From Amoebophrya sp. A120 (Eukaryota > Protista > Dinoflagellata): 64,000 nt of DNA. The DNA lies in assembly GCA_905178155.1 (NCBI GenBank), contig CAJINV010000004.1:9648625-9712624 (forward strand), read 5' to 3'. A model generated the notes under the pieces. It was not told where the DNA came from. It searched no databases and saw only the letters and a program-made list of their open reading frames with translations. The translations under genes were made by a program, and so were the position numbers. This document shows, in pieces, positions 930 to 61,646 of the stretch. Within the stretch, counting starts at the first letter, position 1, and the number at the start of each line of letters is the position of its first letter.

Positions 930-3900
930 CCACAATTCCCACGTCGGGGATGCGACGGCGACGCCCTCCGGGGGGGTCAACTTTGAACGGAACGAGACCT
1001 GGTATGGCGTTCTCAAATGTTACATTCTTAACTGTTACATAAATTTGTAATGCAAGAATGGCAAAAGTGAAAGGGGCAAGGTTGCGCCTTTTGCATTACA
1101 GATTTGGAGCAGATTATAATGCTATCTAGCGCGTCGAGAACCTGTCATGCGGAGAAGGCTTGAAATTGTGAAAAGTGTAAGTGATAGCATTTTGCATGAC
1201 AAATAATGTAACAGTTGAGAATGTGACGTTTGAGAACTCCATACCTGGAATCTGGGGCAGATGTGCCGTTCCGTGATGCAGAACGTGTTTATCGTGGGTT
1301 TTTACAGCTACCAGGGGGAGGTCCGCGCGGCGACGGAGTGGGGGCGGCCCGGGAAGGTCATGCAATTGCGCCCGGCGTACGGGAACAGCCTGGAAGCGCA
1401 GCTGCATAACCTGTTTCCGAAGAGAAAAGCCTTTGTGAAGTTCGACACAAGCGCGAAGGACTGGTACAAAGCCCCGCCGACTTTCCAACTGCCGTGCGAC
1501 TACGAGTTGGTCTACCCAGAAGTCCACTGCACGGAAAATGCGGACTACAAGAGTCGGAGAATATCTTTAACATCCTCTTCAACATCGTCGAATAAAACCG
1601 CATCGGGTTTATTTTCCTTCTCCGCGACCGAGCGGGTGGTGGATCGACGGATGGACAGCTGCAGGTTACAAGCCGACTTCAAGAACGGCAATATTAACAA
1701 GCTCTGCTACGTCGACGAGTACACCGGGGGGCGAAACATTTCCGTCCACAGTCTACTATGCTGTGCAAAAGTATCGTACTAGTAGAATTTGCATGACAAG
1801 TTCGCTCAGCATGACAAATCGAGTTTGTCATGCTGACTTACCTTGGGATTGAGGTTTGTGATGCACGACTGCCATTACTACGAGTACGATACTTTTGCAG
1901 AGGATATCTACCGACCGAGGTGTTCCGGCGGCTGCGCGCAGACCCGCTGAATTGGTTCAACACGACGCCGATACTGCAGCGCTGGGTGGGCGTGCAGTAC
2001 CACCCGGAGACGGAGCTGCAGTCCCACTACGGGGAGGTGCGGGCGAATAAATGTTACGATTTGGTCATTTTCTGCGACGAAACGACCGCGCTGGACGTCA
2101 ACCTCCGACCCGTGGCCCACACCGGCGAGGATAAGGAGGAGGTCTCCGCCGCGGCACAAAAAAGACTGATGAAGGAGTACGCCAAATTGCTAAAGGACCC
2201 GCCGCAGGGGGTGGAGGCGCACCCGCTGGAGGACAACATTTTGGAGTGGCACTTCCGGCTGACCGGGAACCAGGCGCCCTACACCGTATGGATTGCAAAA
2301 ATGTAAATGTCTGGGTCTGGAAAGTTGTGATGCAGGTCACTGAATAATAACCAAACTGTAATGCGCCGGCAAGCATGACAACTTTTTTCATGCTTCTGTG
2401 TTGCGTATTCCGCATGAGAAACTGCGTGTTTGCATGACAGGCAAGAGGAGCTCTTCGTTGCTACGCAATACAGATCCCAGAGTCATGCCAGTCTAGCACG
2501 ACAAATCTCGCAATCTCCCAGACGCAGACATTTTTGCAATCCATACACCGGGGGCAGGTACCACGGCGTGTTGGAGTTCCCGAGCTCGTTCCCGATGCAG
2601 CCGCCCAGCATTCGGATGCTGACGCCGAGCGGGCGGTTCGAGATCAACAAGCGCATCTGTTTGTCGATGTCCGATTTCCACGCGGAGAGCTGGAACCCCA
2701 GCTGGACGGTGGAGAAGATACTCGTCGGTTTACTGAGTTTCATGTACGAAGAGACCAGCGAATCGATCGGGAGCATGCTCGACCCCTGGGACGTGCGAAA
2801 ACGGTACGCACGGGAGTCGGAATTCTTTAACCGGGAGAATGAGGTGTATCTGTCGATTTTCAAAGCGGTGGATGACTTATGCAATGCAAAAGCATCGTAC
2901 TAGTACAAATCGCATTACAGATTTACTCAGCATGAGAAACGCAATTTGTAATGCTGTTTTACCTTAGGAGAGAGATTTGTCATGCATATTTGCAATTAGT
3001 ACGAGTGCGATACTTTTGCACTGGATATGGCTCCACAGTGGCGGGTTCGTCCTCCTCCTCCGCCACGGGCAACAAGCGGCAGCGCATGCTGAGCGGCGGC
3101 GCCGCAAACGAGTACGACGAGAACGATGACCAGCCCCAGTGCCGCTACTGCCTCTCCGGCGAGGGGGAACTGGTCGCGCCCTGCGACTGCAAGGGCACGA
3201 ACCAGTACGTGCACCTGCAGTGCTTGCGGCAGTGGCAGAAGTCGGTCTTGCTCACGCAGTCCACGCACCCGAAATTCCAGACGAGAATCGACGCGATCTG
3301 CAACATATGCATCGCAAAAGTATCGTACTCCTCGTATAAATGCATTACAAATACAAATTGCCTCAGCATGAGAAATAAAATTTGCAATGCGGATGTAGCT
3401 TCGGAACTAGATTTGTAGTGCATGTCTGCAATCACTACGAGTACGATATTTTTGCACAGGATACAACATCTGCGAGAAGCCCTTCAAGGGCCCCTTTCGG
3501 CCGAAGGACCGGGCGCAGGCGGTCTTGGAATTCGCGGGTGCCGAGATGGCGCAGAAGCTCAAGAAAGGGCACCTACTGGTCTCCTCCGAGAAGGAATCCC
3601 AAGAGTCCGCCGAGGCGATGGAGCGGCAACCGGAGTTGCGGCCGCATCTGGAACAGTGGACCTACGCCGTGTACCTGATCGCCAGTGAGGAACCAGCGTC
3701 CAGACGCGAGGACGGCCACGTGCTGGGCGTGAACCTCGTCGCGATGGCGAATCCCGAGCCACCACAGCGGGTGGATAGCAATCTGCCCGGGTTTCGGAGA
3801 CTCACCGTCTCCCCCATGAACGCCTGGAAGCAAAGCTACAGAAAATTGGTCGAGAAGCAGCCGTTTGTGCGGAAAATTTCCCACTACAACGGCGGGCCGG

Positions 3901-5020
3901 TGGAGCCGGACAAGTGTTTTGCGCTCGCAAATCTTCCCTCCTTGACGAAGACGAAGTACAAAGAAAGCAGTTTAAACATCCGGGATGACATGTACTTCGG
4001 AAATTTAGCGAGCATCGCGAATTTGGCGCAGCTTCACTACGATAACACGCGCGAAGCCTCCCATCTCCGCATCTACTGGGGCTACGCGGCCTGGGGCACG
4101 TCGCAGCTGCTGGCGGAGATCGCGAAGCGGCACTGGGGCATCAACACGGAGCCGTACGAATTCGAACCGTTGTATCCCGGAAAAAACACCCATCCCCATC
4201 CAGTTTTTGCGTGACAAACACTGCAAATTATGAATATTTTGCATGACAAATTGGATGTTTCGATAGTTTTCCGCTGCTGCTCCTCATGCTCCAACTTCAC
4301 GCAGTCGGGATCTCATCCGTGGTTTTCCTCCAGCTACGCCCAACACACCCGCGGGTCTCGCGTGCTGCTGGACTTCCACGACCCCGTCTCATTTGTTGGC
4401 GCCCTGCTGAGTAGTAATCCGTCAGTTCCCCGCAATCCGGCGTCCACCAGCCAGTTCCAGCTTTGCAGTGGCGATTAGCTTCAAGTATCTACCTTTCCAG
4501 AATCAGGCGCTTCCAGCTCGTCGTGCCCTAAGCTCAGCAGCGCACCCTCTCGGGTTGTGGCCTTTCCTCGGAGGTGGGGTTGGGCTTGGGGCGCCAGGCG
4601 AATGGACGGCTTCGCAGCTACGTTGTGATCGACAAACTGAGATCGACGATAATGGTTGCGTTGCTGGTCCTGTGCCAGTCGCGGGGCATGTTCGGGTGTT
4701 CCGGGCTGTGCTTTGTGCACCCCTCGGACCCCGCACCCCCCCGGGCTCAGTAGCGCAGTCTGTTAAGCATGACAAATTGGATGGGTTTCTGTTGTTGTCT
4801 CTCGGTAGAAATCGCGTTGTTCAATTTTCCGTTTTAGAGTTTACCGGGTATGCGGTTTCAAGTTTGTAGTTTTGTTTTACAAAGGGACGCCCTGCCCTTA
4901 GTTTCCCAACATGACAAATTGGATGGGGATGGGTGTTTCTCTCTGGATACGTTGCCAGTCTGGGACGACGCGGTCGTGAACATTTCCATGGCAAAGGAGT
5001 CGGAATATTCGAAGAAATGA
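930..5020 (+). CDS. 5'-partial multi-exon gene: erythromycin esterase-like domain + UBE2J/Ubc6-like E2 + RING-CH (MARCH-type) finger + DUF179 (YqgE/AlgH-like) domain. Exons approx. 930-1002, 1249-1756, 1912-2286, 2551-2877, 3033-3305, 3469-4172, 4955-5020
   Basis: Removing six TAT..ATA elements plus one DR each gives one frame. Esterase-like motifs: HNSHVGDATAT..NLGQMCR..GFYSYQGEVRAATEWG..LQRWVGVQYHPETELQSHY..YDLVIFCDETTAL. E2: KRLMKEY..HPLEDNILEWHF..PYTGGRYHG..FPMQPPSIRMLTPSGRF..ICLSMSDFHAESWNPSW. RING-CH: CRYC..PCDCKGTNQYVHLQCLRQW..CNIC. DUF179: GGPV..YWGYAAWGTSQLLAEI. Stop TGA at 5018-5020. Confidence 0.85.
1003..1243. mobile_element. Non-canonical intron / introner, singleton family, DR CCTGG
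   Basis: TIR TATGGCGTTCTCAAATGTTACATTC / GAATGTGACGTTTGAGAACTCCATA; CCTGG at 998-1002 and 1244-1248; spliced product reads NETWNLGQM. Confidence 0.9.
1757..1906. mobile_element. Introner family B (about 150 bp), DR TCTAC
   Basis: TATGCTGTGCAAAAGTATCGTACTAGTAG ... CTACGAGTACGATACTTTTGCAGAGGATA; spliced product reads VHSLPTEV. Confidence 0.92.
2287..2545. mobile_element. Introner family A (about 260 bp), DR CACCG
   Basis: TATGGATTGCAAAAATGT..CTGGGTCTGGAA / CAGACATTTTTGCAATCCATA; spliced product reads PYTGGRYHG inside the E2 domain. Confidence 0.93.
2878..3027. mobile_element. Introner family B, imperfect DR TGACT/TGGCT
   Basis: TATGCAATGCAAAAGCATCGTACTAGTAC / GTACGAGTGCGATACTTTTGCACTGGATA; removal joins the E2 exon in frame to the RING-CH exon. 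Confidence 0.88.
3306..3463. mobile_element. Introner family B, DR CAACA
   Basis: TATGCATCGCAAAAGTATCGTACTC / GAGTACGATATTTTTGCACAGGATA; spliced product reads AICNICEKPF and completes the RING-CH finger. Confidence 0.93.
4173..4949. mobile_element. Long introner (777 bp) with internal cargo, DR CGTTG
   Basis: TATCCCGGAAAAAACACCCATCCCCATCCA / TGGATGGGGATGGGTGTTTCTCTCTGGATA; CATGACAAATTGGATG occurs three times inside; spliced product reads FEPLPVWDD. Confidence 0.88.
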
Positions 5021-6640: not shown

Positions 6641-9600
6641 AGGTGAGTGCTGCGCCAGCTGGTAGTTGCTGGTGAGTTGCGGAGAAGCAGAGTGAAGATG
6701 CGAGCTTATTTGCTGAAGATAACTATGTCTCCGTGTAACGAGCGTCAGGAGCGTCAGGGCCGCGAGAGAGTCTGGGCAGATGCCCATACTGAGAGATGAA
6801 GTCCTGGAGAATAAACATGAGTGTTTTGCAGTGTGGAGAAAAGAATCCACTTCTGCTCCATAAAAACTTACGACCGGCGACGCAGTGGACGCGACCGTAG
6901 TGGTGACGGTCGAACGCGATGAGAAGGCGGCGGAGCTCAACCAGCTCGCGCAGGCGGGCCGGCGAAGGTCCGGCCACGAATTCGCGTTGAAAGGCATTGA
7001 TATCGCCCTAACGGGCGCAGAGCTTGCCCCAACCTCAGCGCCTGACAGTCCGCGCCCAGCCTTGTCCAGTATGAGCACGCCCGAGCTGCGCCGGTTCTGC
7101 CAGCTCGCCCGCGGGCGGCGCCGGCGCCCATGCATGACTTCGGAGGCGCGCCAGGAAGCGCCACCGGCGGGGCGGCGGGGGCGTGGATGTGTGCTCCCCA
7201 AAGCCTCCCCCGGGGCGGGCCGCTAGCTTTGCTCCGGGGCCCAACTGCCACCGGTTTCGCGGCCCGGAGATGGCCGGCCTGCCGTGGTGCCGGCGCCAGG
7301 CAGTTCGTTGCCTGCCGGCGCGCGCGTTTCTATCTGCGTGGAGGGGCGTGTTGATTCTCACCCTTATGTGGTGGCCCTATTATCGGGCTAAGCTATATGA
7401 CAAGCACTTGACCCACCGATTCTCGCGCGCGGGCCCGCCATTTTTCCACCCATTGTTTGCGCGGCAGCCGCAGCGCAAGTACGCAACACGGTATACAAAG
7501 GTCGTCGGAACGCGCCTCCGAGTTTTTGTCTGCGACGAAAAATATTGCCACCCCGTCCCTCCAACCACCTTGGGGCTTCCTTTCGCGATTTCGTGGAGAC
7601 CTGCCGACGAGCCGCGCTCGCGGTTCGTTAGCGTGGGGTGTTCGCGTTCTGTACATGGTGGCTGAAGATCATCTGGTCCCAATTCGTACTTCTTTTCGGA
7701 GAGGATGGCTTCATGGATCTCTGACGTACGTTCGTAAAGATAAGACCGATCATCTTCAGTAGCGCACAAAGTTATCCCTTACTTAGGATGCGCCAGCTCG
7801 TTCTTGAAATCGATCCTGACAAAGATTTCCAAGTGCGGCAGCGCTCTTCGTCAGCAAATATTGCGGATCGAAGCAGTATTGAAATATAGACGATACACCC
7901 GTACGCGTGCGCACCTATCATTTTGTCTCCGCCGCATCCGTAATAGAGTAATCGTATGAAATGTGGGCCGTAATTCATTTATTTGGTTAGTTGGATGCGC
8001 AACGAGCGGAAGGAGACTCGTAAAATGGTCCGATCTCGTTGTCGTCGTACGTATACTAAGAACGAGTAAGGTTGTCCTTGTTCTGGCCGGTCCATCTTCC
8101 TCGTCGTTCCTGAGTGATTTTCGTCGGGAGTGAGAAAGTAGAAGTAGCGTCTTCTTGAGCGTGGACCGCCCGCAAATAAAGAGCTGTGAGGCTGCAGCTA
8201 ATGCTGATCTTCTAGAAAGACCTTTGATATATAATCGACAGGCTGCAGAGTCACCGCCTAGACATCATCCTTGGCCTGAACGACCTATGTGTTGGACAGG
8301 AACGAACAGTTCGAACGTGGTGAGCGAAAACGAAATCCATCATCATACCAGTGCTGCAAAGGATAAATATTTCTTGTTGAAATGGTTTGGCAAGCACAAA
8401 TCAGAATAAGACCTCGAGGATGTTTTCTCGACATTGATATGCTGCAAAGAACTCCTGAACCTGAAGATTGTACGAAGAATAACTTAGCGCTGTTGTTGTG
8501 TTGCTGTTGGCCCGAAGAGAGAGCGACGATGAAGACTAGCAAACATAATGTTCGCGGGGTATTTCAGCTTCGGTGGATACGGAGCATCCGATGAAGCAGC
8601 CCTGCCAGAACTTGACGTTGAGGATATTGCAGACAACATGGCTACCGGAACCCGATCGCTGCAGCTAAAGCCGCAGGCCGGCATCACCGAGGACCTTGCC
8701 CTGCGGGGCAAGGTGTGGATCAAGGCCGCGAGGGTGGAAGCGGAAAAGGACTGCAAGGCCCTTCCGGCCGGGCTGGAGAATTGCAAGGCGCGCGGAGAAA
8801 AAGCCCAAGTGGCAAATCACTCCGGGGACAAGCGCAACCATACAGAAGTCCAAAAAGCGCGCGCCAGTCGCCCGCATCCGGTCGCGAATCCGCGCGCGGG
8901 CCCCGCTCGAATGTGTGGCGCGCAGGCCGGCGCCTTAGGGCCGCGCGCGGCAGGCTAGGCGGCGAGGAAGCCTCCGCGCGGCCTCCGGCCATGCGCCCCT
9001 GCCAGGCCTGCCCGCGTGTGGCCAAGGAGTGCGCGCGCCGGGCGTCGGCCCCCTTCATCTGGTCTTTCCTGGCGGGCGTGAGCCTGTGCCGCCTGGCGAC
9101 CGACCGGTGGGCCGGCCCCCTTCTAGGCCGGGGGCCGGCATGCTGCCCGCCTGGCCCATTGTGCATCTGCGCGCCCAGGGTTCGTTCTGCGGTTTGTTTT
9201 CCTACCCCGCCGACCGGCTGATCGCGCGCGCCCGCGCGGCGTCAGAATCTATGCCGCCGCGCCTGCTTGGAGTGTGTGAGAGCGGGAGCCGCTGCAGGGG
9301 CTCGGCTACGTAAATTAACACCCGCAGCGGCCGGCGCCTCGTGGCCCCATCCTGGCTGCTTCGTGGCGTTTACAGCATGATGTGAGTGTGGTGTCACGTC
9401 GCAAAGGGGCCGTCTCGCCTTCTGCTTTCCTTTTCGGATTTACTTTTGTAGGCGAGAGTGCAGTTTTCGGAATGTGTTGGCGTCTTGCGTGCCCAGATTT
9501 TTCTATTGGGGTTTGCTTGTTCATGTGCCCAGCCCCACCCCCAGCCGCACTCGTTGTTATCGCTGCAACGCAGATAAAATTAAAATATCGCGGCCACTCT

Positions 9601-9967
9601 TCAAGGCTGGGTGCCCCGCAGCAGTATTGAGCGGGGAACGAGGTGAAACTAGTCGAAAAACGAGAGCAAACTGCGCCCGTCAGAAAGTTTTCTGTCTGAT
9701 TGAAAGAAAGCAGTCGCGAGAGAAGCGTCGTCGGCGTTTTGTGTGTGGACGTCGAAACTATAGTTGCTATCATGCGCGCTTTGGTTCTACCAGTAAATGT
9801 GGGCCGCGCAAGCGCATGATGCGGGTCCACACGTATGGTTGAGCACACAGCCAAGTTGTTGTCATTCTAACTAAAGAAATCGAAGAGCTAGTTAGTATTT
9901 GCTTTTGCGTATAGTTTTTTCCATAGAAAAGATACATCTGTTGCACTTGCCCAAGAAGAACAAGAGG

Positions 9968-10906
9968 ATGGCCCGAATTTTCCTCGGTGGGATCGGATTT
10001 GTGGACGAAGAGTCCTTCCCCGGCCTCTCCAAGGAGTCGACGGAAGTGCACGAGATGTTCGAGCATGCCTGGGTCTTCCAGGACTTCTCCGAGAAGGCCC
10101 TTCCTGGCCGGATAGAGGAGTACATCGGGAAGGGGTGGGTGAAGGCTGACGAGCTGACGTACACCGTCGCGCAAGTGTCGGACTTCTCCCAGTACGACCT
10201 GTACAGCCCGCGGCGAGCGGAGATCGTCTACACCACCCAGATGGAGCTGGGCGCTGCCCGCGATCGGGCCATCCAGGGGCGCCGTCTCCAGTTGTTGCAC
10301 AAGCATTGCTCGCTCGAGCGGGAGTTGGCCGCGACCGAGGTCGCCTTGGTGGGCAGGGCGGAAACCGCGGACAGCCACAGCTTGGTGGAGGAACTGCGAA
10401 CGCCGCTCCGCGAAAAGACCAACGAGGTGCTAGTCAACCTGCATGACATCACGGAAGACCACCCGCTGCGCATCGAACTAGACTCGCCGCGGAAACGGCC
10501 AAACAAGACGTACCCCACGGAACGTAGGCAAGACGTCACAGAGGAGGACAGCATCCTGTGGCAACACCTCCTGGAGGAGCGCGAAAAGCGCCAGTACTAC
10601 TGCCTCTTGGAAGATCCGAGTGAGCACTGCGACTTCGCCATCGAGCAGCAGCTGCGCATCAACGACAAACGCCGGCTGTATCTGATCCGCCAGGACTTGC
10701 TGAAGACGCGGGAGGTCCGAGAGCGGGAGGCCACGGGAGCGTACGATAGGATTTTCTGCAACTCGCCAGCAAATCGACCCCGGGACGGGCCCGTCGTGCG
10801 CGTGGATCACACAACCCGCTCCTTTGCACGCGATGGTAAAGACATGTTCGAGTTGGAGTACCAGATGCGACTGCAATTGGAATGGGCGATGGAGATCGGT
10901 ATTTGA
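9968..10906 (+). CDS. Hypothetical protein (about 312 aa from MARIFLGG), no recognised domain
   Basis: Long ORF (track 9899-10906) with GC3-rich codon usage like neighbouring exons. Confidence 0.6.
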   Translation: MARIFLGGIGFVDEESFPGLSKESTEVHEMFEHAWVFQDFSEKALPGRIEEYIGKGWVKADELTYTVAQVSDFSQYDLYSPRRAEIVYTTQMELGAARDRAIQGRRLQLLHKHCSLERELAATEVALVGRAETADSHSLVEELRTPLREKTNEVLVNLHDITEDHPLRIELDSPRKRPNKTYPTERRQDVTEEDSILWQHLLEEREKRQYYCLLEDPSEHCDFAIEQQLRINDKRRLYLIRQDLLKTREVREREATGAYDRIFCNSPANRPRDGPVVRVDHTTRSFARDGKDMFELEYQMRLQLEWAMEIGI

Positions 10907-11116
10907 GAATCAACATCAGACGTGTTATTTTAATTTTGAGTTGCGACGAGGAAACACAAACACGAATCTATAGACGTTATGGAAAACGCATCACCTGCGT
11001 TCGTACGCTGGAATACATCTCTTGACTTTTCTATTTCTTATGAACCCAAATAGAAATACGCGTCAAAGAGCAAGAGTCTAGTACTCTCTGAAACGCTACG
11101 AACAGGGTTCCCGCCG

Positions 11117-49242: not shown

Positions 49243-49305
49243 GGAAGGAAGAGAGACCCATTACCGCGTCGGTGTTGACCGACAACGGTATTCTGGCTGT
49301 TGGCG

Positions 49306-50303: not shown

Positions 50304-50364
50304 TCCGGTGGATCTGAGCAAGGTGAAAGTGGAGGGGGAGGAAGCGGAGACGCAGAAAACGGAT

Positions 50365-50643
50365 TATCCTGAGTAAAAATGTCCCCACACCAGAGTCAAG
50401 ATGGGGATTTTGCAACACAAACCTAGAACTTTTGGGGGTCACGCATCACAAGTTGCAGTCCGTAGTGTAGTGCATGTTCGCAAGGCCAGCTGCATCAGAA
50501 ATCCATCTGCTCATCCTGTTTACAGCATTACAAATTCCAAAACACAACTAAAAATGACTCTCCTGGCGATGCGCATTACAAATGTTCCTGTCATTGCAAA
50601 TCTGCATGACAACTCTGGTGCGGGTACGTTTTTACTCAGGATA
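50365..50643. mobile_element. Introner family C (reverse orientation), DR CGGAT/CGGAC
   Basis: TATCCTGAGTAAAAATGTCCCCACACCAGAGT / ACTCTGGTGCGGGTACGTTTTTACTCAGGATA. Confidence 0.95.
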
Positions 50644-51867
50644 CGGACAATTCGAAAGCAAGAAGTACACCCGCGTCATCTTCAAAAAACACGACGGCAA
50701 CTACTGTAGCCGATGCAGATGAACTTGCTTCAGACGCGGAGGAGGAAGAGGAGGAGGAAGGGATGTTGAGCGATGACGATATTGTGTCTGAACTCAGCTA
50801 CGGCAGCTACGTGCAGGAGTTTGACGACGATGACGAAAGCTCGGAGGAGGTCGCACCTCCGCCAAAGAAGAAGAGAAATAAAGGGAGAAAGTGAATTAGT
50901 ATTGCATCAAGATGACAGCTCGACGGTTGCCAAGCCCCTGAGCATGCAGTAGCAGTTGTAGAACATTGAAGATAAGATCTTTATCTTTCTTGAAAGCTTC
51001 TCTTTCTGCACGTGACATTCTTTGTGCACATTGACGTTTTTCTGTTTGTTCTCTTTCGCATTTTGTCGTCATCTAATGTTGAAACTGAAAATATCATGAT
51101 TATCATTTTATTTTTATTATGCTGCATATTCACTACCCTGCCTCTGTAAGTGCATCGCAGGCCGTGTTCCTGATCGTGCTCGTGCAAGTATAGATTATGG
51201 TCTTCGTCGTTCGCTTTTAGCCCAACTGGCAAACTCGTTCACTGGAAGTGGTCAATGACGATGCTCTTCTTGCTGCATGATGAAAGGCAGTGTGCATAGG
51301 ATAGCTTTGCACCCGCGAACAACGTGATCCGTTTCTATTATTGACGCCCATGGGCAATAATATCGTGCGTGCCATCATCTTCGTCCAAGTTGACAGTACA
51401 ACTGCTTCGTTCTCATCTTTGTCGTGGTTCTTACTGTATTAAGGAAGAAGACGGCGACAATGATTGCGGCTCCGGCTCGATCCGGAATATATAGATTTAA
51501 TAAGCACGTAGTTGGCCAGCATGGATTAGCAAAATTAATAAAAAAATCTGACAACAGCAAGTTGAAGAGCAGCGCATATGCTGAGCTTGAGTTTTTAAGA
51601 TATAACTTCGTCCTCGTTCTTTATTGCGTCACAGTTCCCGCTATTTCAACGACTCCGAGTCCCGCAGATTCTAACTCCTCGCTCAGTCCTCAAATACAGT
51701 CTGTCAGGTGAAACTATACGCAAAACCAGAAGTAGTTGTAACACTAGTACGGTCTGCTCGTTTTCAGGCCGCGACCTTCACTCGACAAATTGGTGCCGCA
51801 AGGTAAAGAATAAAAAAAGCCGTAGTTCTACTAATTGCTCTGAGTCTAGCGCTCCCAATAGCAGAAA

Positions 51868-53614
51868 ATGGTCAAGAAAACTACCAGCGCTGCTCTTGCA
51901 ACCACCCTCGGGGGGGGGGGGGGTGCTCGCCGCTGCGACGTCGCGCACGCATTCGTGGACCGGAAGTGAGTATGGCCCGCCCAGGTGTCACATTGTCAGG
52001 CGTTACCGTCAGAGTCAGAGTTTATGACGTTGCAATCACCGGAGCACAGAAAGAGATGTTGAGAAGCATTATTATTACGCTTAACGGCTTTTTTTTTTGC
52101 AAAACTAGCACTACACCAATCCCGTACTAAGCGGATTACCAAATACGTCGAGCAACCCAACGGCGTCCCGGCTGTATAAAAGAAATTCAGTGTTTTGCAA
52201 AGGTTGAGGCTCTTTGAAGTATTGGAATAGGCGAGAGTGTAACGCCTGAGCGGGCCATAATGAAACGTCGGGCTTTCTGGAGGTGAATGGCAAGGCTGAC
52301 GCTGCGAGCGTCTGTCAATATATGTCCCCCCTGATGGAGGGTGGGATATTTGCAACGGATGTAGGCCAACCCGGTAAGTAGTACCTCTACTAGAATTTAG
52401 TACGCGTGCTCAAGAATTAGCTCATGAATAGCTCCTCCAGCTGCACACCTAAAGTTCTGGAACGCCTGGATGGAGGGGCGCAGGTTCATCGATAGCCGCC
52501 TCTACTAGTGCAATAAGCGTGGTCAACTTTTAGCTCATGAAAGCTCCAGCTGTACTCTTGACGTTCTGGAACGCCACCACCCTCCGCCCGCAGCCGAGCC
52601 GAGCCGTCAAGCTCTCCACTTTTAAAGTTGCGACACTCCTAAAGTTCCGAGCACTCTTAAAGCCCCGCCCGCAGCCGAGCACTCCTAAATTTCCGACACG
52701 CCAAAGTGCCCCATGTTATGCTTATGCTATGCTAAATGTAAAATTCTGATCATCTGACTCAGGGCGGTACATAACTAAGTAGTCAAAGGTTTGTTTCTGT
52801 TTGTACTCACCTTATATTCCAGGCGCCCCCGAAACGGCAAAAAACAGCAAAAAACTGATCGGTTTATTGCATTCAGAAACCCCAGCGAGGGAGTGTGGGT
52901 GGCGCGCCAGAGCGGTGCGCCCGCATTGCGTCGGGCTTGCGGGCGAAGCCGCTGCGGGTAGTCGGAGTCGAGAATCTCGACCCGGGCCCAAAGTTGTTGA
53001 GAATCTCGACTCCGATGGCCCCCAAACCGCATAAGGAATTTAACTTCTTTGCCCACGGGCTGGAATCTGAGAGAAGAGTCGCCGCTTTTGCGAACCCGGG
53101 AAGAGATTGCCGCTTCAAGAAAGTTGAAGACTTGTCGTGCGAAGTAGGGGCCGGCAGGTGAAGGCCAATCGATCCCGAGCAACAGCGGCACTCCTAGGCT
53201 AAGACGGAGGCCGCTGACCCTTTTTTCCTCGCAGCCCGCGGGCCGTTTTTTTGTTTCATTATGTCCTCCCATACTAGCCATACATTTACATTATAGGAGG
53301 TTTGCTACTTCATATTACATACAGGGCCGATGCGCGAAACGGGAAACATGTGGCCGTGGCCCGTGGGTGGAGGTCTTCAGAAGACAACAACCTGCATCAA
53401 GTTCAAGAAGCAGAAGGACGAAAAGAAGTGCCCTTCAAACGAAGATAACAAGTTGACTACATATTCTTCTTTTGGTCATACATCTGCCCTTTTCAAAGCC
53501 GAAGAGTCGTCGAGCAGTGCCAATTACGCGGCCATCACTCTGATGCTTCAAGAGGATGTCGATTTCTTGGCCAGATGTCTGATGTGCCCGGATCTGTGCA
53601 AGGATAGCGCTTGA
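51868..53614 (+). CDS. Paralog of the small secreted Cys-rich protein. Exons 51868-51970, 52265-52373, 53325-53614; +1 frameshift in a G14 run
   Basis: MVKKTTSAAL..THSWTGSETSGFL..C..WPW..TCIKFK..C..ARCLMCPDLC aligns with 46574-46954. Canonical intron G|GTAAGT (52374) to ATACAG| (53324) is in frame. Confidence 0.7.
51971..52259. mobile_element. Introner singleton family, imperfect DR GTGAG/ATGAA
   Basis: TATGGCCCGCCCAGGTGTCACA / TGTAACGCCTGAGCGGGCCATA; the empty site GGAAGTGAAACG is in the paralog at about 46670. Confidence 0.88.
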
Positions 53615-55811
53615 GTCTCGTACTTTCGTTCTTTTTTTTTTCGGTTTATTCTGGTTGACGTTGATCAACAACAAGTACGTTTATATTCGAAAAAGTACCA
53701 AAACCTTTATCACAAAAGTAGAAGTACTTCAAAAAAGTTATACGTAGTACAAAACACAAAACCAAAAGTTAAAGTAACAATATCAGCCAGCTTTGAAGAT
53801 TTTCAGTACTGTAGCCAAATTTCAGGCAACGTCGCGAATATGTTGTCTTCGCCCACAGTAGCGCAGAATAACTCTGTGTGGCTTTCCGTTCTCATGATTA
53901 TGGTCTTTCACTTTGCTTGAATATGAATTTGTTTTTGTAGGAGCGTCTAGGTTTTTTTTCATCGTCACATCATAAAGTGCAAAGTCAAAGTTTCCCCACC
54001 GATCGAAAAGCAGATTTGAAAAGCTATAAACCAACGGAAAGTAGACACCTTCCAAACAGATGTTGGAGGGAGCACGCTGCGTGTTTCGACTCTGTTTTAA
54101 CTCAGTCTTGCTTGACTCGAAGATTTAAGAAAACCCCCTTCCCGATTGCATGCATGTCTACAACATGATAGGCGGACGCGAAGCCTTGACCTTCTTCGGC
54201 ATAAAATCCAAAAAAAAAAAATATAAAAGCAATGCTGTAGAAGGTAGAGTTTCAGTATTCGTTTAAAGAACGCATTGGCGTATGCGTAGCAAACTCTTAT
54301 AATTTTTCATCTTTTCATCCCCTTGCCTTTAGCAATACTTACTTTAATGTTTTCCACAGTCGTTGTACATCGTGGTTGTGCTTCCAGGTTCCTTCCACGT
54401 GTATTAAGCCCCATCCCGTTTCATAGGATATTGTTTTTACTTATTTATTGTTATTGCTCCTAATGCTATAAGTACAAGTAGCTAATCCCTAACCCCCCAG
54501 CACCGCAACGCCAACGATCGAAGGAGTACCAGAATGCCCATCAATATTTGGAAAAAGAACAGTACCTGCCCCCCGGCCTTTGGCCAGGAAGAGGAATTCC
54601 ATTGCATATCCTGCTCCCGATGAAATCTGTAGCGTAGTCATCCGCTCCTGTGGTTGCACCCCATAGAAGCACGCCCCCGGCGGCATAGCCTGTCGCGTCA
54701 CAGGAAACACGACATCCTCGACCCCCACATGACCCTTTTCCCCCGATGCAACTTTCATCCCCTTCGAATTCCGTTCCACCTGGCCGGTACGTCGTGTACA
54801 TGGTAGTGTTCTTTCACTTCCGTGTCATTATCGTGTTTAGCCAAGCACGGCCGTGTTCCCTTGTCTGCCGATAGTTCGGAGGAGGTCGCTTCTCCGCTGG
54901 AGAAGAAAAAAAATAAGGGGAGAAAGTAAAGTTGCATGTGTACTAGAAGCATCTGTCTATGCTCGCCGAGGTTCATCATGCAAGAAAATCCACGTGTAAA
55001 CTCTTCGTAACGTCCTCACATCCTGACGTGTTGAATTCATTTTTGCGCGCTCTGGATCCTGTATGTAAGTATGATGTATTTCTGCGCGCTTTCTTTTTAC
55101 TACACCGTATAAGAAAACAAACACAAGTGGTGCCGTCCGTCGAAAGCGAAACTGCAACACCGGACAAGCTGAGGCTACATCCCGTACGCATTCTTCTTCG
55201 TCCCGTCGGACTGAGTTTTGGTCCTGTAAAAATATCTTCAAGAAACCGCTTCGTGAATCGTCCCTCCTCAAAGAAATCGTTCAACTTCGCACTTTTGTAG
55301 TACGTCCAGTTTACCTCGTACACCTTTTCCGTGTGTGATGCGTTTGATGAAACTCGTTCGGTACTACAGAACGACAGCAGTGGTCGGTCAACTTGTATTC
55401 ATCTCGTTTACTGCAGCGGACCACGACGAATTGCTTCTTCAATTATATTCCTCCTGTCACTTTCCCTGTGAATTTTCAGGCTCAGGCACCATCTCGGTCG
55501 CATTTATGCTCACCTCGTACTGGCGATAATTAAAGTATTTCTTCAGCACGTCGGTTGTCCTTGTCTGTTTCGATTTCCTCGGTGTGCTTTTAGTACCATT
55601 ATCCTACGACCTCTACCTCCGCTCGGTTTTGTTTTGGTTGGTCCCGAACCAACTTTGCTTCCTCACAAGTAGCTTCGGTTTGAAATCGAAGCTGAACATC
55701 TTCAATCTGTAGTACGTGTCAACTACCATCAAATTACTAGACGTTACAACATATACGACCACTATCTACATGTTTGCTTTTTACCAAGTTGGTAAGTACC
55801 ACCCGCCCAAA

Positions 55812-58800
55812 ATGGTTTTCTCCACGATCCGCACAGTGACCAATTTTACCCAATTTGTCCTGAAAGACCTCCCCGCGTCAGTCATGGTGGGCGCGGCGGC
55901 AACAGCACTGTACTTCGCGGAGGTACAGGCGGCGCTGAAAGTTGCGGGCGTGATGATCGGCGCGAACCCGCCGCTCGCGGCGTTATGCGCCTTCTTCGCG
56001 GTTGTGTTTTCCACCATTATCCTGTGCAAAAGTATCGTACTCGTAGTAATCGCAGTCATGCATTACAAATCTCCATGCCAAGGTAACACAGCATGACAAA
56101 TTTCATTTGTCATGCTGACCGAATTTGTAATGCGATTTCTACTAGTACGATACTTTTGCAATGCATAACCATGGCGGTGCTGCAGTACAAGGGCGATTTC
56201 GACTTTTTCTACTTCGCCAGGTATCAACCGTAAAAATGTCTGGGTCTGGAAAAATGCAACTTGTCATGCTCAATCTGAAGCATGCAAAAATCTGTGTTGC
56301 ATGATTACCAAAAGTCGTCCAGTTTTGATCAAGTCGGGAGGGAGTTTCTCATGCAGGATAGGCATGAGAGAGATCGCACAGAATCTGTCGTGCTAGGTCC
56401 TGCATTGCAGACCTCATGGGTCATGGAAAAGCTGCATGACAAATCTGACAATCTTCCAGACCCAGACACTTTTGCAATCCATACCAGGACGCGCGTCCGG
56501 AAGGACTACTACGACAGCATCGCGGAACTGGACTTTGACGGCTTTTACCAAACCATGCAATTGGACTACGAGAATTTGGTGAGATGGGTGTCAGAAAACG
56601 GAAACTACGTTTACACCGTATCCTATGTAGAAACGTCCCCACCCCATAGTTGTCATGCGGGTTTGCAATGACAGGAACATTTGTAATGCGAACCTACATG
56701 AGAGGAATTTCCCATCGTGTTTTGAAATTTGTAATGCCGTAAACAGGATAAGAAGGTGGGTTTGTGATGCGACTGTCCTTGCTAAGCTGCACTACACTAC
56801 AAAGACAAACCTGTCATGCATGGCTCCGAAAACTCCTGGATTTGTGTTGCCGAGTTCCCAACTTGACTATGGGGTGGGGACGTTTTTACATAGGATACAC
56901 TGTCGTGTCCGCAAACGTTTTGGATTTGTATTACTACCTTCTCGTCGATTTCGGGTTTATCCTGAGTAAAAACGTACCCACACCACAGTTGTAATGCAAA
57001 TCTGCATGCTGAAAATGTTTCTCATGCGGAGCCCCATGAGAAGCATTTTCCAATCGTGTTTTGCAATTTGTCATGCTCCAATCAGCATGGTCAGATAGAT
57101 CTGTGATGCTGCTGAGCTAGCTCAAACAGCACTACAATACGAATCCAAATTTGTCATGCAAAACAGCTAAAACTTGTGGATTTGTCTAGCCGATTCCCCA
57201 TCTTGACTCTGGTGTGGGTACGTTTTTACTCAGGATAGGGTTGCCGGTTTTGTTAGGCGCCATGGCGCTCGGCTCCGTCCTCGGCGTGGTGGGTCTGTAT
57301 GTACTCTTTGTCGGGCTGCGAAGGATGGTTTTTGGAAGAAATAAGGTTAATGTTCAACAGCACCCAAATTATGCACAGTTGATCGACGGCGCAATTTCTA
57401 GCAGTTCTGTTGGTGTTACTCTTCCGCAGATGACACAGATGAACAGATCCGGAAAGATTGCGAAGCCGAAGGAATCCGTGTCCATCCGCTCCCCGAATCT
57501 GTTAGCTCCTCCGAGTAGAAGATCTTCGAAAGAGAGTGTGACAAACATAAGTCCGCGTCCGGTTGACAGCAAAATGAATTCCGCACGACCGGTTTCCCCG
57601 ACCGCAACCTCGAGCCGCGCGTCTCCGCCAGGCAGTCCCCGCCGGCGTGTGTCCCGCACTGAGGCGGAGTACGAGCAGGACCAGCTCCTTACGCCCTACG
57701 ATGCGCAAGTGCTTTCGCCAACAGGGAATCAACCGAAGGACCGGTTTAAAAACCGGCTTTCCTCCTCGTCGCGGTCGCCGTCCCCCGTGGCTCGCGGCGG
57801 ATCCAAATCCTCCGAACGGAGTTCCAAGGGGAAGGGCGGGCTGGGCCGGAGCAGATCCCCTGTACCGGGGGCGGTGGATCCCTCGTCAAAATCGGAGAAT
57901 GATGAGTTGAATTCGAGCAGAAATCTATTGGAACAGTTGCAGCGAAAATCCGTGACCAAGACGGATTTGGAGTTCAAGGAACAGTCCACCGCACTGCAGC
58001 AAATTGGGGAGTACTTGGACCGACTGACGATGAGTGCCTTCAACTCCGGCCCCTTTGGAGGGATATCAAATGCAAAAATGTCTGGGTCTGGAAGATCGCA
58101 ACTTGTCATGCTAAATCTGATTCATGCAAAAACTCTGTGTTGCACGATTACTACCAACAGCCGTCCTTTTTTACCAAGTTGAGAGAAAATTTTTCATGCA
58201 GAATAGGTATGATAGATTTTTCACAGAATTTGTCATGCTTGGCACTGCATTCCAGACCTCATGGGTTATGTAACACCTGCATGACAAACCTTCCATTCAT
58301 CTAGACCCAGACATATTTGCAATCCATAAGGGAACAAGAAGCACAAGCAGCTGGTGAACCCGTACTACGTGCACCCGGCTTCGTATGGATGTGTCAGAGT
58401 TGAAATCGACAAAGTTGAAATGATTTGTCATGCATAAAATGCGACACAGAGACTGACTCTATTGCTGAAGGCGCAAGGGAGGCAGATTCTAGTGCTGGTA
58501 AGGGTCAAGCATTGGGCTGCTGACTAGCATGACAGGGAGCAGCCATCTTGCCCTAAACAGCATGACAGACTTGCTTCAGAGGCCAGGAAAACTTGTCATG
58601 CGCCGATTGATAACTGTGGGTCCAACTGGTATAGATTTCATGCATCGCAAATTATTTCAACTTTGTTAATTTCAATCCTGACAGTTCCATACTTCGGATT
58701 TGCCCGGGCAGAAATCGAAAAAGTACGACTTTGTGCAGCCGAAGTCGATTCAAATGGCGGAGCAGATCCACCAAGAGGCGGCTGAGAAGAAAGCGATGGA

Positions 58801-61646
58801 ACTAGAATTATACCAGCAGGAGCAACAAGATCTCTTGATGAACACAAACAACAGAAGTACTTCTCTCCGAGGGTCCTCTTCGTCCTCTGCTTCGAAAATG
58901 GACAAAAAACGTCGACCCTTCTACCTCCGTGCGGGCTCCTCGCGGAACAAGCACGCCTTGTCCCACTCCGCCTTCGAATTGCCCGGCGTGTTGCAGAAAA
59001 AACGGAAACTCGGGACCGTGAGGAAGCCGCCCCCGCTTGATTTCGGCGAGCTGGATTACGAAAAGGCGAAACAAGCCGGCTTGCACCACTTGATCCCGGC
59101 GGAGAAACTTGATGTTTATCCCGCTGGGGTCGTTTATCAAATGCAAATATGTCTGGGTCTGGAAGGTTGCAACTTGTGATGCTGTTCTTGGATTCTAAAA
59201 AAAATCTGTATTGCATGACCAGCAAGAGGAGCCCAGTTTGTGCTACGCGGGCGGGAGGCCATTTCTCATGCGGAATATTGCATCAGAAAGCCCTCTGAAA
59301 ATCTGTGAAGATGCTAGGCCACGCATTACAGGAATCATGGGTCATGCAAAATGTGCATGACAACCCTAGCATCTCTCCAGACCCAGACATATTTGCAATT
59401 GATATCGTCACCCCCGGAGCGATTTCCGCGAACGAGGAAGCGTCCGCGGCGTCCACACACGGAGGAAGGGATATCAACTGTAAAAATGTCTGGGTCTGGA
59501 AGATTCTAAACTTGTGATGCTGTCTCTGGATTCTGAAAAAAATTGTAATGCATGACCAGCAAGAGGACTCCAGTTTGTGCTACGCGGAGAGGTCATTTCT
59601 CATGCTGTAGAGGCATCACAAAGCGCTCTAAAAATATGTGATGCTACGGCATGCATCACAGACATCATGGGTCATGGAAAATATGCATGACAAATCTAGA
59701 AGTCTTCCAGACCCAGACATTTTTACATTTGATAAGGGATAACGAAGACGCAACTAACTCCCTCGAGATGAACACCAACAGCCTGGTGGACCTCGGTGAG
59801 ACCACACTGACCGCTTCGAAGCAGGAGATCGGGCGGTCGATGGGCAGGCGTATGAAATGCAAAAGCATCGTACTCGTATAAATCGCATGACAAATCTCCT
59901 CAGCATGAGAAATATAATTTGTAATGCGGATTCAACTTGAGAAGGAAATTTGTAATGCATGAATGCGATTAATAGTACGACTACGATACTTTTGCACAGG
60001 ATAAGGCGGACCAGAATCCTGTTCGGGAATCTGATCAACTCGCACAACATATCCCCCAGAAAAAGACCGACAGGTCATATTTGTAATGCAAAAATAAATA
60101 GACAAAAAAATCTGTATTGCATGCCCTAAACAGGATGCTATGGCCTCGCCCATGACAGATTTTCCTGTGTATTTATTTTTGCATTACAAATATGACCTGT
60201 CGGTCTTTTTCTGTGGGATACAACAAGAAGCGGCTTGTCGCAGGAGCCTCGGCTCCGCGGGACAGTGCCGCCGGACGTGCAGCCCCGCAGCCGAGTTCTT
60301 ACATGGTGGCACAGAAACGGCGGGACCAAATGCGCGGCCGCGCGAGATCTCGGTCTCCCTTCTTTTCGACGAGGAATGAGGATGATTTGGAGAAAAATCA
60401 TTTTGGTTCATCTCAACATCTCCAGTTGTACAACGACGAGTTATCGGGTACCACGATGACAAACGCCGACTTGCACCAGCACAACTATCAGCGGTCCCAG
60501 TCCGCCGGTACGCAGCCCTTTCAGCAACAGGAGGAGGAGAAGATGCAAACGCAGCTGCTCGCGATGCACTTCGAGTCCAAGTCGAAGCAGCAAGACGAGC
60601 GGATCTTGCACGCGCAGCAGTACGCGAGACAACTGGAGCTCAAGATGAAGCAGATGCAGAAGCGCGCCGAGCTCGCGGAAGAGAAGTTCCACATGCTTCG
60701 CTACGCCCAGCAGGAGGCGGGGGCGCCCAGCAAACTGCGGCTCGCGGGGGAGACCTTCGAAACGCAAATCCAAGCGGCTATGGCGATGGACGCGGCGCAG
60801 GCGGATCCGCAGCAGATGGCCCGGGTCGTGCACGACCTGGAGCAACAGCACAACCGGATGCTATCAAATGCAAAAATGTCCGGGTCTGGAAGAGTGCATG
60901 TTTGTCATGCTTGTCGGGCATGACTCTTAAATCTGTAATGCACGCTACCCAAGAGCCCAATTTTGCTGTCATGCAGAAACGCAGTTTGTCATGCAGAATA
61001 GGCAACATCTAGAAGCTCAAAAGCTTTGTCATGCTGAGCCAGCACTTGTGGCGTCTTCATGATACGCCACCCAGCATCACAAGTTTCCAGACCCAGACAT
61101 ATTGGCAATGCATAGATGCTGGGAAAGTGCAAGGTGGAACTCGCGAACAAGGAGGCGAAAATATCCTGAGTAAAAATATCCCCACCCCAGAGTTGTCATG
61201 CAAATCTGCATGCCAAAAAAGTTTCTCATGCGAAGCCCCATGAGAAGCTTTTTCTAGTCGCGTTTTGGGATTTGTGATGCTAGAAATAGCATGAAGTGCT
61301 AGATCTGTGATGCTGCTGAACTAGCTAAACAGGATCACACAAGGAAGACAAATTTGTCATGCGAAGCAACCAAAGTTGGCTGATTTGTCTAGCAGGTTTC
61401 CCATATTGACTCTGGTAATATGGGGATGTTTTTACTCAGGATAGAAAATGGACAAGATCCGCGCGTTCGCAAAGGACCGAATCGAGAAGCTGCAGCTGAA
61501 AGTCAAAGAAATGGAGCAGCAAAACTCGAAGCTGGTCGACGTTCCGGCGGAAAAATTTGACCAACGGATCAAGTTCTTGACGGACCGGGGCGTGGAGCTG
61601 GAAAAGCAAAAAGCAAAATTGACGAAGAAGAACGCGGACCTGGAGG
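55812..61646 (+). CDS. 3'-partial hypothetical protein (N-terminal transmembrane segments, Ser-rich middle, C-terminal coiled coil) interrupted by 12 introners
   Basis: All 12 junctions restore one frame: FSTMAV, FARTRV, VYTVVS, DFGLPV, FGGNKK, PASDLP, GVVTPG, GRDNED, MGRRTR, SHNKKR, NRMLGK, EAKMDK. Confidence 0.8.
56018..56167. mobile_element. Introner family B, DR ACCAT
   Basis: TATCCTGTGCAAAAGTATCGTACTCGTAG / CTACTAGTACGATACTTTTGCAATGCATA. Confidence 0.93.
56222..56483. mobile_element. Introner family A, DR CCAGG
   Basis: TATCAACCGTAAAAATGTCTGGGTCTGGAA / CTTCCAGACCCAGACACTTTTGCAATCCATA. Confidence 0.93.
56619..56897. mobile_element. Introner family C, DR CACCG/CACTG
   Basis: TATCCTATGTAGAAACGTCCCCACCCCATAGT / ACTATGGGGTGGGGACGTTTTTACATAGGATA. 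Confidence 0.93.
56958..57237. mobile_element. Introner family C, DR GGGTT
   Basis: TATCCTGAGTAAAAACGTACCCACACCA / TGGTGTGGGTACGTTTTTACTCAGGATA. Confidence 0.95.
58064..58328. mobile_element. Introner family A, DR AGGGA
   Basis: TATCAAATGCAAAAATGTCTGGGTCTGGAAG / TCTAGACCCAGACATATTTGCAATCCATA. Confidence 0.93.
58384..58691. mobile_element. Introner singleton family, DR CTTCG
   Basis: Imperfect TIR of about 55 bp, TATGGATGTGTCAGAGTTGAAATCGACAAAGTTGAAAT / ATTTCAACTTTGTTAATTTCAATCCTGACAGTTCCATA. Confidence 0.92.
59135..59404. mobile_element. Introner family A, DR TCGTT/TCGTC
   Basis: TATCAAATGCAAATATGTCTGGGTCTGGAAG / TCCAGACCCAGACATATTTGCAATTGATA. Confidence 0.93.
59472..59734. mobile_element. 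Introner family A, DR AGGGA
   Basis: TATCAACTGTAAAAATGTCTGGGTCTGGAAG / CTTCCAGACCCAGACATTTTTACATTTGATA. Confidence 0.95.
59851..60003. mobile_element. Introner family B, DR AGGCG
   Basis: TATGAAATGCAAAAGCATCGTACTCGTA / TACGACTACGATACTTTTGCACAGGATA. Confidence 0.93.
60050..60220. mobile_element. Introner singleton family, almost fully palindromic (arms about 65-70 bp), DR CAACA
   Basis: TATCCCCCAGAAAAAGACCGACAGGTCATATTTGTAATGCAAAAATAAATA / TATTTATTTTTGCATTACAAATATGACCTGTCGGTCTTTTTCTGTGGGATA. Confidence 0.95.
60862..61114. mobile_element. Introner family A, DR GATGC
   Basis: TATCAAATGCAAAAATGTCCGGGTCTGGAAG / TTCCAGACCCAGACATATTGGCAATGCATA. Confidence 0.93.
61162..61443. mobile_element. Introner family C, DR GAAAA
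   Basis: TATCCTGAGTAAAAATATCCCCA / TGGGGATGTTTTTACTCAGGATA. Confidence 0.95.

Follow-up and report, generated by a model that had tools for sequence, protein, structure and literature searches.

We analyzed a window of 64,000 nucleotides from the dinoflagellate Amoebophrya sp. A120 (contig CAJINV010000004.1, positions 9,648,625 to 9,712,624 of the forward strand), in which genes are interrupted by short elements that start with TAT, end with ATA and lie between two copies of a 5-bp direct repeat (DR). Scanning the window for TAT...ATA pairs whose arms match and whose 5-bp DR has at most one mismatch gave 30 matches. Five of these fell within an inverted duplicate (21745-31384), leaving 25 distinct complete elements, distributed as 6, 2, 5 and 12 over four genes, in addition to two broken ones (about 740-929 and 48230-48484). 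A stricter scan with the duplicate removed again returned 25 elements, while dinucleotide shuffles returned none in 20 of 20 trials. An earlier note on this DNA had reported about 26 complete elements in five genes and at least nine types of terminal inverted repeat (TIR). Its observation of the TAT...ATA and DR architecture stands, but the count is 25 in four genes, with eight arm types (nine elements in family A, seven in family B, four in family C and five single elements). The genes concerned and the duplicate are as follows.

930-5017, + strand: 3' part of an erythromycin-esterase/E2/RINGv/DUF179 gene (A120 model P0001, 1120 aa) with six elements (Pfam, in silico splicing).
21745-31384, - strand: inverted copy of 45254-54893 (9640 bp, 100% identity), flanked by an N run on one side and a single N on the other, with second copies of five complete elements and of the broken one.
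About 38508-42371, + strand: snurportin-like gene with two elements (Pfam).
43230-45699, + strand: paralog without elements, providing the empty sites; A120 model P0121 (754 aa), canonical intron 44622-44826.
48485-50894, + strand: 3' part of the element-bearing paralog, which has five complete elements and canonical intron 48621-48824; A120 model P0122 (paralog comparison).
55478-61647, + strand: gene with 12 elements and a 980-codon frame after their removal, continuing past a GT at 61648 (frame restoration, run X1).

The inverted copy is likely an assembly (scaffolding) artefact and was excluded from the counts. The elements are listed below without strand, except for the first; the evidence is given in brackets, run X1 being one of the sequencing runs compared further on.

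740-929, + strand: broken family-A element with right half, end and four GCATnACA motifs (motif matches 757-849; left end not found in the window).
1003-1243: single-type element (within the window), DR CCTGG (scan, frame restoration).
1757-1906: family B, DR TCTAC (scan, arm typing).
2287-2545: family A, DR CACCG, within the E2 domain (scan, arm typing, Pfam).
2878-3027: family B, DR TGACT/TGGCT differing at base 3, where the upstream base is retained in the A120 model (frame restoration, model comparison).
3306-3463: family B, DR CAACA, lying where the RINGv match ends (scan, Pfam).
4173-4949: single-type element of 777 bp, DR CGTTG, with an internal 18-bp direct repeat, gone from the A120 model (model comparison).
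38640-39164: family A, DR CATCG, with a nested insert between 17-bp direct repeats, in the snurportin-like gene (frame restoration, Pfam).
39203-39790: family B, DR GGATG, with a nested insert between 16-bp direct repeats (frame restoration).
48230-48484: family A, right flank CTGCG; the breakpoint truncating the filled paralog has removed its left end (sequence).
48978-49242: family A, DR GGAAG, opposite in orientation to 49589 (scan, arm typing).
49306-49454: family B, DR TGGCG (scan, paralog comparison).
49589-49858: family A, DR CCACC/CCATC, mismatch at base 4 (frame restoration, paralog comparison).
50092-50303: single-type element, DR TCCGG (scan, paralog comparison).
50365-50643: family C, DR CGGAT/CGGAC, mismatch at base 5, opposite to 56619, 56958 and 61162 (arm typing, paralog comparison).
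56018-56167: family B, DR ACCAT, opposite in orientation to 59851 (run X1, arm typing).
56222-56483: family A, DR CCAGG, the sole one of 25 permitting GT-AG, at 56221-56487 (frame restoration).
56619-56897: family C, DR CACCG/CACTG, mismatch at base 4 (frame restoration).
56958-57237: family C, DR GGGTT (scan, run X1).
58064-58328: family A, DR AGGGA (scan, run X1).
58384-58691: single-type element (within the window), DR CTTCG (scan, run X1).
59135-59404: family A, DR TCGTT/TCGTC, mismatch at base 5 (frame restoration, run X1).
59472-59734: family A, DR AGGGA, predicted rod-like hairpin with z = -8.45 (folding prediction).
59851-60003: family B, DR AGGCG (scan, run X1).
60050-60220: single-type element, DR CAACA (scan, run X1).
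60862-61114: family A, DR GATGC (scan, run X1).
61162-61443: family C, DR GAAAA (scan).

The 25 elements range from 149 to 777 bp. TAT is present at all 50 ends, and adenine occupies positions 11, 12 and 13 in 44, 45 and 50 of them; the end consensus reads TAT[GC]NNNN-G-Y-AAA, with arms of 25-35 bp and roughly four GCATnACA motifs in mirrored places. On either strand, the arms of all 25 are predicted to pair, often leaving positions 4-7 unpaired; a search of Rfam gave no match at gathering score. The DR measures 5 bp in every case and is perfect in 20, the other five having one mismatch. Every element contains stop codons in all three frames, and deleting each element together with one DR left open frames of 775, 932, 334 and 980 codons in the four genes, as had been claimed. 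The single rule proposed for all elements (TAT...ATA plus a 5-bp DR) mostly held but is not absolute, since single changes in TAT or in the DR occur in genes whose frame is restored. Removal of 0, 4 or 6 flanking bases broke three of the four frames, whereas removal of 2 or 8 kept them; because the frame fixes the removed length modulo 3 only, the exact value of 5 is taken from the empty paralog and from an RNA-like contig described below. A GT-AG pair could be reached by sliding within the DR in one of the 25 elements (56221-56487), in line with the earlier note.

In silico splicing of the first gene across its six elements reproduced P0001 at 774 of 774 aligned residues. Pfam placed elements inside the E2 and RINGv matches of this protein; in the snurportin-like gene, the elements lie upstream of the cap-binding match. 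Elements had been said to interrupt E2, RING-CH, snurportin and WD40 motifs; this was found for the first two and not for the others, WD40 having no Pfam match in the two exons tested.

These elements correspond to a published class. Two exons of the window (the E2 exon and an exon of the 43-kb gene) are 100% identical to the Amoebophrya sp. A120 proteins P0001 and P0121. In the text of Farhat et al. (2021; PMC7789003), the introner elements of A120 have inverted repeats with a TAT start, seven variable bases and then at least three A, DRs of 3-5 nt (5 bp in the legend of Fig. S19) and a mean length of about 240 nt, as well as RNA-seq-supported non-GT-AG junctions and predicted hairpins. The same text reports no transposase for them, leaves their splicing unexplained and states that the removal mechanism should differ from the usual machinery (PMC7789003). 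The window elements share the genome, the TAT/A-run repeat, the DR, the non-GT-AG junctions and the occurrence in repeated copies. Their ends and the encoded proteins fit this description, and we have therefore rediscovered these elements: they are the A120 introner elements already described, with no difference in kind, so that the link to Amoebophrya introners is closer than the earlier note had claimed. The class is thus known, and its removal mechanism is now more testable. Added here are removal in a contig that is likely RNA, empty sites in a paralog, a strict 5-bp DR, insertion in both orientations and a shared 8-mer. The main text of Farhat et al., figures aside, contains no "GCAT" and uses "orientation" only of genes (PMC7789003). 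Relative to that text, the strictness of the 5-bp DR once the ends are fixed at TAT/ATA, the two orientations, the shared GCATnACA, a codon-phase bias and the use of imperfect DRs to locate the cut are additions, although figures S19-S25, the datasets of Gozashti et al. or other papers may hold some of these points already. Our literature search found no later paper on the removal of the A120 elements.

The insertion history is visible in the pair of paralogs. Each of the five filled sites of the element-bearing copy is a single 5-mer in the empty copy, and both copies retain the same canonical intron (44622-44826 and 48621-48824). Over 334 codons, synonymous divergence (dS) is 0.21 and nonsynonymous divergence (dN) 0.017 (dN/dS about 0.08). 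The low dN relative to dS indicates that the filled copy was kept functional while bearing elements; it is now 5'-truncated at an element end. The coexistence of canonical introns and elements in the same genes had been proposed from intron 44622-44826, which sits in the element-free paralog, and it is its counterpart in the element-bearing copy that bears the proposal out. The second example given, intron 52374-53324, belongs to a gene in which no element was seen in the window.

To extend the set, a family-A end pattern was matched to metagenome contigs, giving at least 166 loci, of which 159 had sequence (L001-L159, 532 kb); among the 80 matches listed, all were on JACKZZ01 contigs, from A120 itself or a close relative. 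Viral contigs gave no match to the family-A end. The 331 arm pairs found in these loci when no DR was required included 3, 234 and 0 with an exact DR of 4, 5 and 6 bp, respectively, and a further 42 with one mismatch. The target bias was weak and palindromic (CC/TG at bases 1-2, 36 versus 21.8 expected; GG/CA at bases 4-5, 41 versus 30.6). The elements are repeated in the genome, with a summed depth in run X5 of 10^4-10^5 in most element-bearing bins compared to 40-60 elsewhere. Terminal inverted repeats, a target-site duplication (TSD) of fixed length, short size and lack of coding capacity are the features of miniature inverted-repeat transposable elements (MITEs). Long TAT...ATA elements encoding a transposase had been suggested as a search target, but no transposase or other coding partner was found among the elements of the window or of the 532 kb of loci. 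Five loci elements measure 457-1104 bp, and the longest had no transposase match in the one frame scanned. An integrase-like mobilizing enzyme would fit a 5-bp TSD. Taken together, the elements are likely non-autonomous DNA transposons inserted in either orientation with a 5-bp target duplication.

Two observations concern individual elements. The longest one (L023:505-1608, 1104 bp, exact 5-bp repeat) contains a 238-codon open stretch with no Pfam match in the one frame searched. In the window, segments 38853-39131, 39312-39764 and 4768-4927 lie between direct repeats of 16-18 bp inside three elements and are likely secondary insertions; their hosts still have restored frames, and segment 4786-4909 has similar copies in loci L064 and L007-L009.

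A codon model called the correct strand for all 25 window elements (leaving one gene out at a time) and oriented 165 of 309 loci elements, giving 190 in total. Only 15 of these permit GT-AG in some register and 175 permit none, so that the elements do not have the GT/GC-AG ends of U2 introns (GT-AG possible in 1/25 and 15/190). Similarly, the U12 5' site has the consensus RTATCCT, and TATCCT occurs at 30 five-prime and 24 three-prime ends of 190, with no strand bias, unlike U12 introns.

We then compared four runs over 48240-61700: X1 and X5 (contigs, one sample each) and X8 and X10 (raw RNA). X1 is taken to be RNA, a guess accompanied by zero depth in two intergenic bins. Its record 4, a 5243-nt contig with four listed pieces, skips 991, 583 and 877 bases of the 55478-61647 gene, which equal the sums of element plus 5 for four, two and four elements. 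These ten elements are absent from the contig, and nine of them have no GT-AG option. Furthermore, seven X1 piece ends fall exactly at DR boundaries, X1 carries only other copies at 14 of 15 listed positions inside skipped elements, and the opposite-facing family-B copies at 56018 and 59851 are both missing from the same contig. The precise DR-to-DR removal that the earlier note had asked cDNA to confirm is thus seen for ten elements in a contig that is likely RNA. It is hardly credible that the ordinary spliceosome removes the elements through nearby cryptic GT-AG sites: although 15 of the 190 allow GT-AG within the DR and some 3' arms have a T-run followed by CAG, the piece ends at DR boundaries, the three gap lengths and the 175 elements without GT-AG in any register speak against it, and it is contradicted for the ten elements covered by X1.

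The kind of run X5 is unrecorded, but its flat depth of about 40-60 makes it likely to be DNA. Its contigs continue from exon into element ends at this same depth, and no precise element-removal joint was present among 15 listed of 902 X5 joints, contigs being prone to drop rare forms. The raw RNA runs X8 and X10 gave 2 and 68 reads, all on element sequence. Given X1 as RNA and X5 as DNA, the plain reading is that the elements likely stay in DNA and are removed at the RNA level. Precise excision from DNA in an expressed nucleus or life stage, as for the internal eliminated sequences of ciliates, would instead have transcripts made from element-free DNA. It would suit the DR and inverted-repeat anatomy, the existence of an element-free paralog that kept its canonical intron, and one rearrangement that breaks at an element end. 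Nevertheless, we consider it improbable: X5 holds exon-element junctions and no precise joint among those listed (one sample, one stage), the empty paralog at a dS of 0.21 is an old copy rather than an excision product, and the upstream copy of the repeat is kept in both informative cases described below, an asymmetry expected of an RNA event.

Two side observations on X1 may be added. A depth value of 6.36 is shared by bases 48941-49548 of the filled copy and 49922-49961 of the empty copy, perhaps from a chimeric contig. At 58412-58675, X1 has a contig of 265 nt from a different copy of the same type of element, at a depth of 185, above that of the host exon; it may be a copy retained in another transcript or an excised RNA.

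Elements face both ways in their host genes. For the 149 family-assigned elements, orientations are 83:66 (p 0.19; family A, 46:42; family B, 17:12; family C, 8:8), with 41 elements unassigned. Sequences across unrelated families share one 8-mer: GCAT[GTC]A[CG]A was counted 105 times within elements of the window (6959 bases) and 17 times outside them (47401 bases), nine of the 17 being in broken elements; in a comparison with shuffles, the counts were 92 and 2.2. In the loci, GCATnACA is present in 304 of 309 elements, and its variable base is G, C or T and rarely A (31/1200). The motif sits in mirrored places about 30-49 nt from both element ends, and 104 of the 190 elements have the central A of their last sense GCATnA[CG]A 30-49 nt ahead of the 3' end. 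Window elements contain fewer internal TAT[GC] than expected (42 versus 67 ± 7), which suggests that copies of the end signal are avoided there. One change in TAT or ATA was found in 14 of 260 elements, some of them in restored frames of more than 700 codons (e.g., 731, 713 and 862).

DR mismatches are present in 36 of the 190 elements, at all five positions, and are enriched threefold at third codon positions (27/339) over others (16/611), slightly above the expectation for one free copy. Additionally, 100 of the 190 DRs have a whole codon at their centre (p about 1e-7), a bias that the base composition of the repeat does not explain; a symmetric target model reproduces it in part (41% predicted in-sample versus 53%). 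The other two DR phases differ between strands of calling. Stable hairpins and DRs are the usual setting for template switching by reverse transcriptase. The cDNA junctions could then be template switches, with protein made by ribosomes that bypass each element between the duplicated codons. Besides the hairpins and DRs, this would account for the in-frame codon that a 5-bp DR always contains, for the whole-codon centring and for the mismatches favouring third positions. The short-read contigs leave room for template switching, which fails to explain protein production. We regard the whole proposal as very improbable: X1 lacks the window's own elements at 14 of the 15 positions listed, with ten consecutive elements missing from one contig; the duplicated codon differs at 10 of 380 non-wobble positions, a rate equal to that of other non-third positions; and twelve hops of 150-300 nt per mRNA are implausible.

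Several candidate signals were dropped. The singleton rates of the motif (2.2%) and arms (2.1%), compared to 3.4% at other interior positions, show the motif to be better conserved but cannot tell selection for mobility from selection for splicing after insertion. A G at DR base 5 (12/25), considered as selection for GT, was mirrored by C at base 1 (11/25) and disappeared against a phase-matched background in the 190 elements. Covariation of first and last bases, as in spliceosomal introns, was equally strong in a mirror control. Finally, TAT changes in long frames favoured 3' arms by 6:1; this excess was lost in a family-anchored scan (128 rows, two miscalled), except for the first T, where it is not significant.

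Imperfect repeats allow the position of the cut to be approached. The A120 model keeps the upstream DR base at position 3 of element 2878, and at L050:5455 the upstream base at position 4 matches the A25 orthologue (F); L050:6619 was uninformative, and a protein search with the L050 exon gave no match. The X1 piece end at 59129 fits the downstream base at position 5 of element 59135. AGG at DR 3-5 was found 10 times versus 4.7 expected (p 0.03; mirror 2 versus 2.0), one of many tests, and the first T is changed in one five-prime versus five three-prime arms of 260, which is not significant. Comparison of 28 other pieces with PDB and Pfam located elements in SNF2, fatty-acid-oxidation and KIN17 domains, with the mismatched residue not visible. 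These indirect and weak hints suggest a cut after DR base 4, with an intron of the form N-TAT...ATA-NNNN. The codon-phase excess would then become a phase-0 excess, and the 5' end in A120 would read N-T-A, donor-like with a free +1. According to Farhat et al., A25 introner repeats begin T-T-A-R-R, and Table S4 shows N-T at the start of each of the nine most frequent non-canonical pairs in A120 and T-T in all nine of A25 (PMC7789003); non-canonical introns make up 65% of the RNA-supported introns of A120.

We thus propose, at a probability of about 0.47, that the transposon-derived A120 introners are removed by an altered spliceosome that makes use of their hairpin. First, a presumed mobilizing enzyme would insert the element with a 5-bp duplication, as seen in the empty and filled paralogs and in the DR length spectrum. 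The element would then persist in DNA and be absent from the transcript, as in the one contig for 10 elements, and carry strand-symmetric end signals and motifs whose pairing is predicted. We consider these three steps together very probable. Following the hints above, the cut would fall after DR base 4, and a spliceosome with a relaxed +1 and 3' dinucleotide might keep U at +2 and possibly use GCATnAC as a branch site 30-49 nt before the 3' end. A predicted end-to-end hairpin could take the place of GT-AG and of cross-intron recognition in pairing the two junctions. With regard to the donor and branch-site consensus, the shared motif contains a branch-like TnAC, and in either orientation a T-run follows it before the 3' end. 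U1 snRNA was undetected in A25 and A120 (PMC7789003) but found in a canonical-intron strain from Karlodinium. A120 retains nearly all spliceosomal proteins, while minor snRNAs are reported absent (PMC7789003).

Several points weigh against this proposal. The evidence for RNA-level removal comes from a single sample, X1, in contigs only, and X5 may be the source sample of the assembly. All four bases occur at every DR position, and neither GT nor AG alone is enriched (G at DR5, 65 versus 59.7; AG at 3-4, 21 versus 17.1), while spliceosomal introns generally have a terminal base preference. The GG/CA excess at DR 4-5 is matched by an equal mirror excess, arm deviations are symmetric overall (family A core, 34 versus 36), changes at TAT positions 2-3 also occur in 5' arms, and the asymmetry of the +2 T (1 versus 5) is not significant. 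The motif is also mirrored at the 5' end (105/190 at 30-59 nt), where it would sit in the predicted stem, and GCATnACA would fit a transposase site equally well. As for the position of the cut, the hint at 59129 hinges on how the tool trims pieces, and the Table S4 pairs on where the aligner places junctions inside perfect DRs (PMC7789003).

Alternatively, a dedicated non-spliceosomal endonuclease and ligase, comparable to what is considered in Euglena, may remove the elements from RNA by measuring its cuts from the paired arms, perhaps guided by a GCATnACA-binding protein. We hold this to be possible, with odds somewhat below even. The lack of junction base preference, the full strand symmetry (83:66) and the tolerance of single TAT changes in long restored frames (731, 713 and 862 codons) all agree with it; Euglena nonconventional introns also have paired ends and are reported to leave as circles, and the expectation of Farhat et al. 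of a mechanism unlike the usual machinery points the same way (PMC7789003). On the other hand, no such enzyme has been identified, nearly all spliceosomal proteins are kept in A120 (PMC7789003), the N-T-A 5' ends in both strains together with the undetected U1 snRNA point to a changed spliceosome, and Fritillaria shows that the spliceosome can adapt to mostly non-GT-AG introns (PMC13326754). We slightly favour the altered spliceosome, the separate nuclease-ligase staying close behind. It is rather doubtful that a second, non-spliceosomal machine blind to junction sequence and orientation cuts at fixed distances from the arms, with one GCATnACA-binding protein serving both mobilization and removal. 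The earlier note had proposed a dedicated pathway recognizing paired ends: the symmetry of the ends agrees with the two orientations, but separation from the spliceosome is not what the weak hints favour.

Other organisms offer partial parallels. As described in the portions of the literature consulted, euglenid nonconventional introns resemble the A120 elements in being non-GT-AG, with paired ends and DRs that blur the junction, a proposed MITE origin, canonical introns alongside and unexplained machinery (PMC12501133, PMC11282704). However, their signature, 5'-N3CDG...CH'GN5-6|R, differs from the TAT[GC]...[GC]ATA of A120, which does not fit it (PMC12501133, PMC11282704), and circles are reported for them, whereas the A120 elements are known here from sequence and contigs. 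The introners of Micromonas, Aureococcus, Symbiodinium and Polarella are MITE-like with TIR and TSD, and their insertion is neutralized by splicing, as here; however, they recruit GT/GC/GA and AG sites or bring their own (PMC9860276, PMC11282704), whereas GT-AG is unavailable to 175 of the 190 A120 elements. In Fritillaria borealis most introns are non-GT-AG and a transposon origin is proposed, a precedent for an adapted spliceosome (PMC13326754), but the preferred ends are AG-AC and AG-AT (PMC11282704) and U2AF is duplicated, while the A120 elements have no terminal preference. In A120 itself, Gozashti et al. (2025; PMC12130899) list TIR-flanked introners with open reading frames resembling those of long-terminal-repeat elements (family 38), a candidate source of an integrase-like mobilizer, although no coding element was found among those of the window or the loci.

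Since the elements were already published, the value as a discovery is low. If either machine were confirmed, a spliceosome without terminal-dinucleotide rules or a new nuclease-ligase, it would mark a major departure within eukaryotic RNA processing and account for the cost-free invasion of exons by a transposon. Were the machine a second, non-spliceosomal one, such arms together with a 5-bp repeat would make any sequence they flank a scarless intron in either orientation, and tens of thousands of transposon insertions would be cleared from nuclear mRNA in A120. Splicing in both orientations demands symmetric signals, and the shared 8-mer is a named candidate for a branch or protein site. The imperfect repeats (36/190 elements) can map the cut to the base with existing RNA-seq.

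A few further observations concern the host genes and the rest of the window. The domain fusion of P0001 (erythromycin-esterase-like, E2, RINGv, DUF179) is common to proteins of Symbiodinium, Effrenium and A25. The family of the two paralogs (43230-45699 and 48485-50894), with no Pfam match, is presumably like WDR74/Nsa1. About 1 kb of the filled paralog holds six insertions, against none in its partner. P0122 takes its 5' part from 46881-47129, and this part appears unrelated to the full-length copy. The filled paralog is truncated at a breakpoint (48230-48240) that lies a few bases from an element left end and is fused to a 90%-identical copy of 54326-55193, and element ends may drive such rearrangements. 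The canonical intron of both paralogs retains one GCATGACA (44682 and 48681), which was present in none of four other likely canonical introns checked. On the - strand, 34163-38446 is a long frame without elements; it matches reverse transcriptase and, weakly, RNase H, and is likely a non-LTR (long terminal repeat) retrotransposon. Several element-free frames at 8510-21000 and 32270-32610 (e.g., 9896-10906, 11054-11959 and 18303-19898) have no Pfam match, and some are preceded by similar GC-rich stretches. Finally, an array of a tandem unit of about 20 bp at 61780-62600, after the GT at 61648, likely lies within a long canonical intron.

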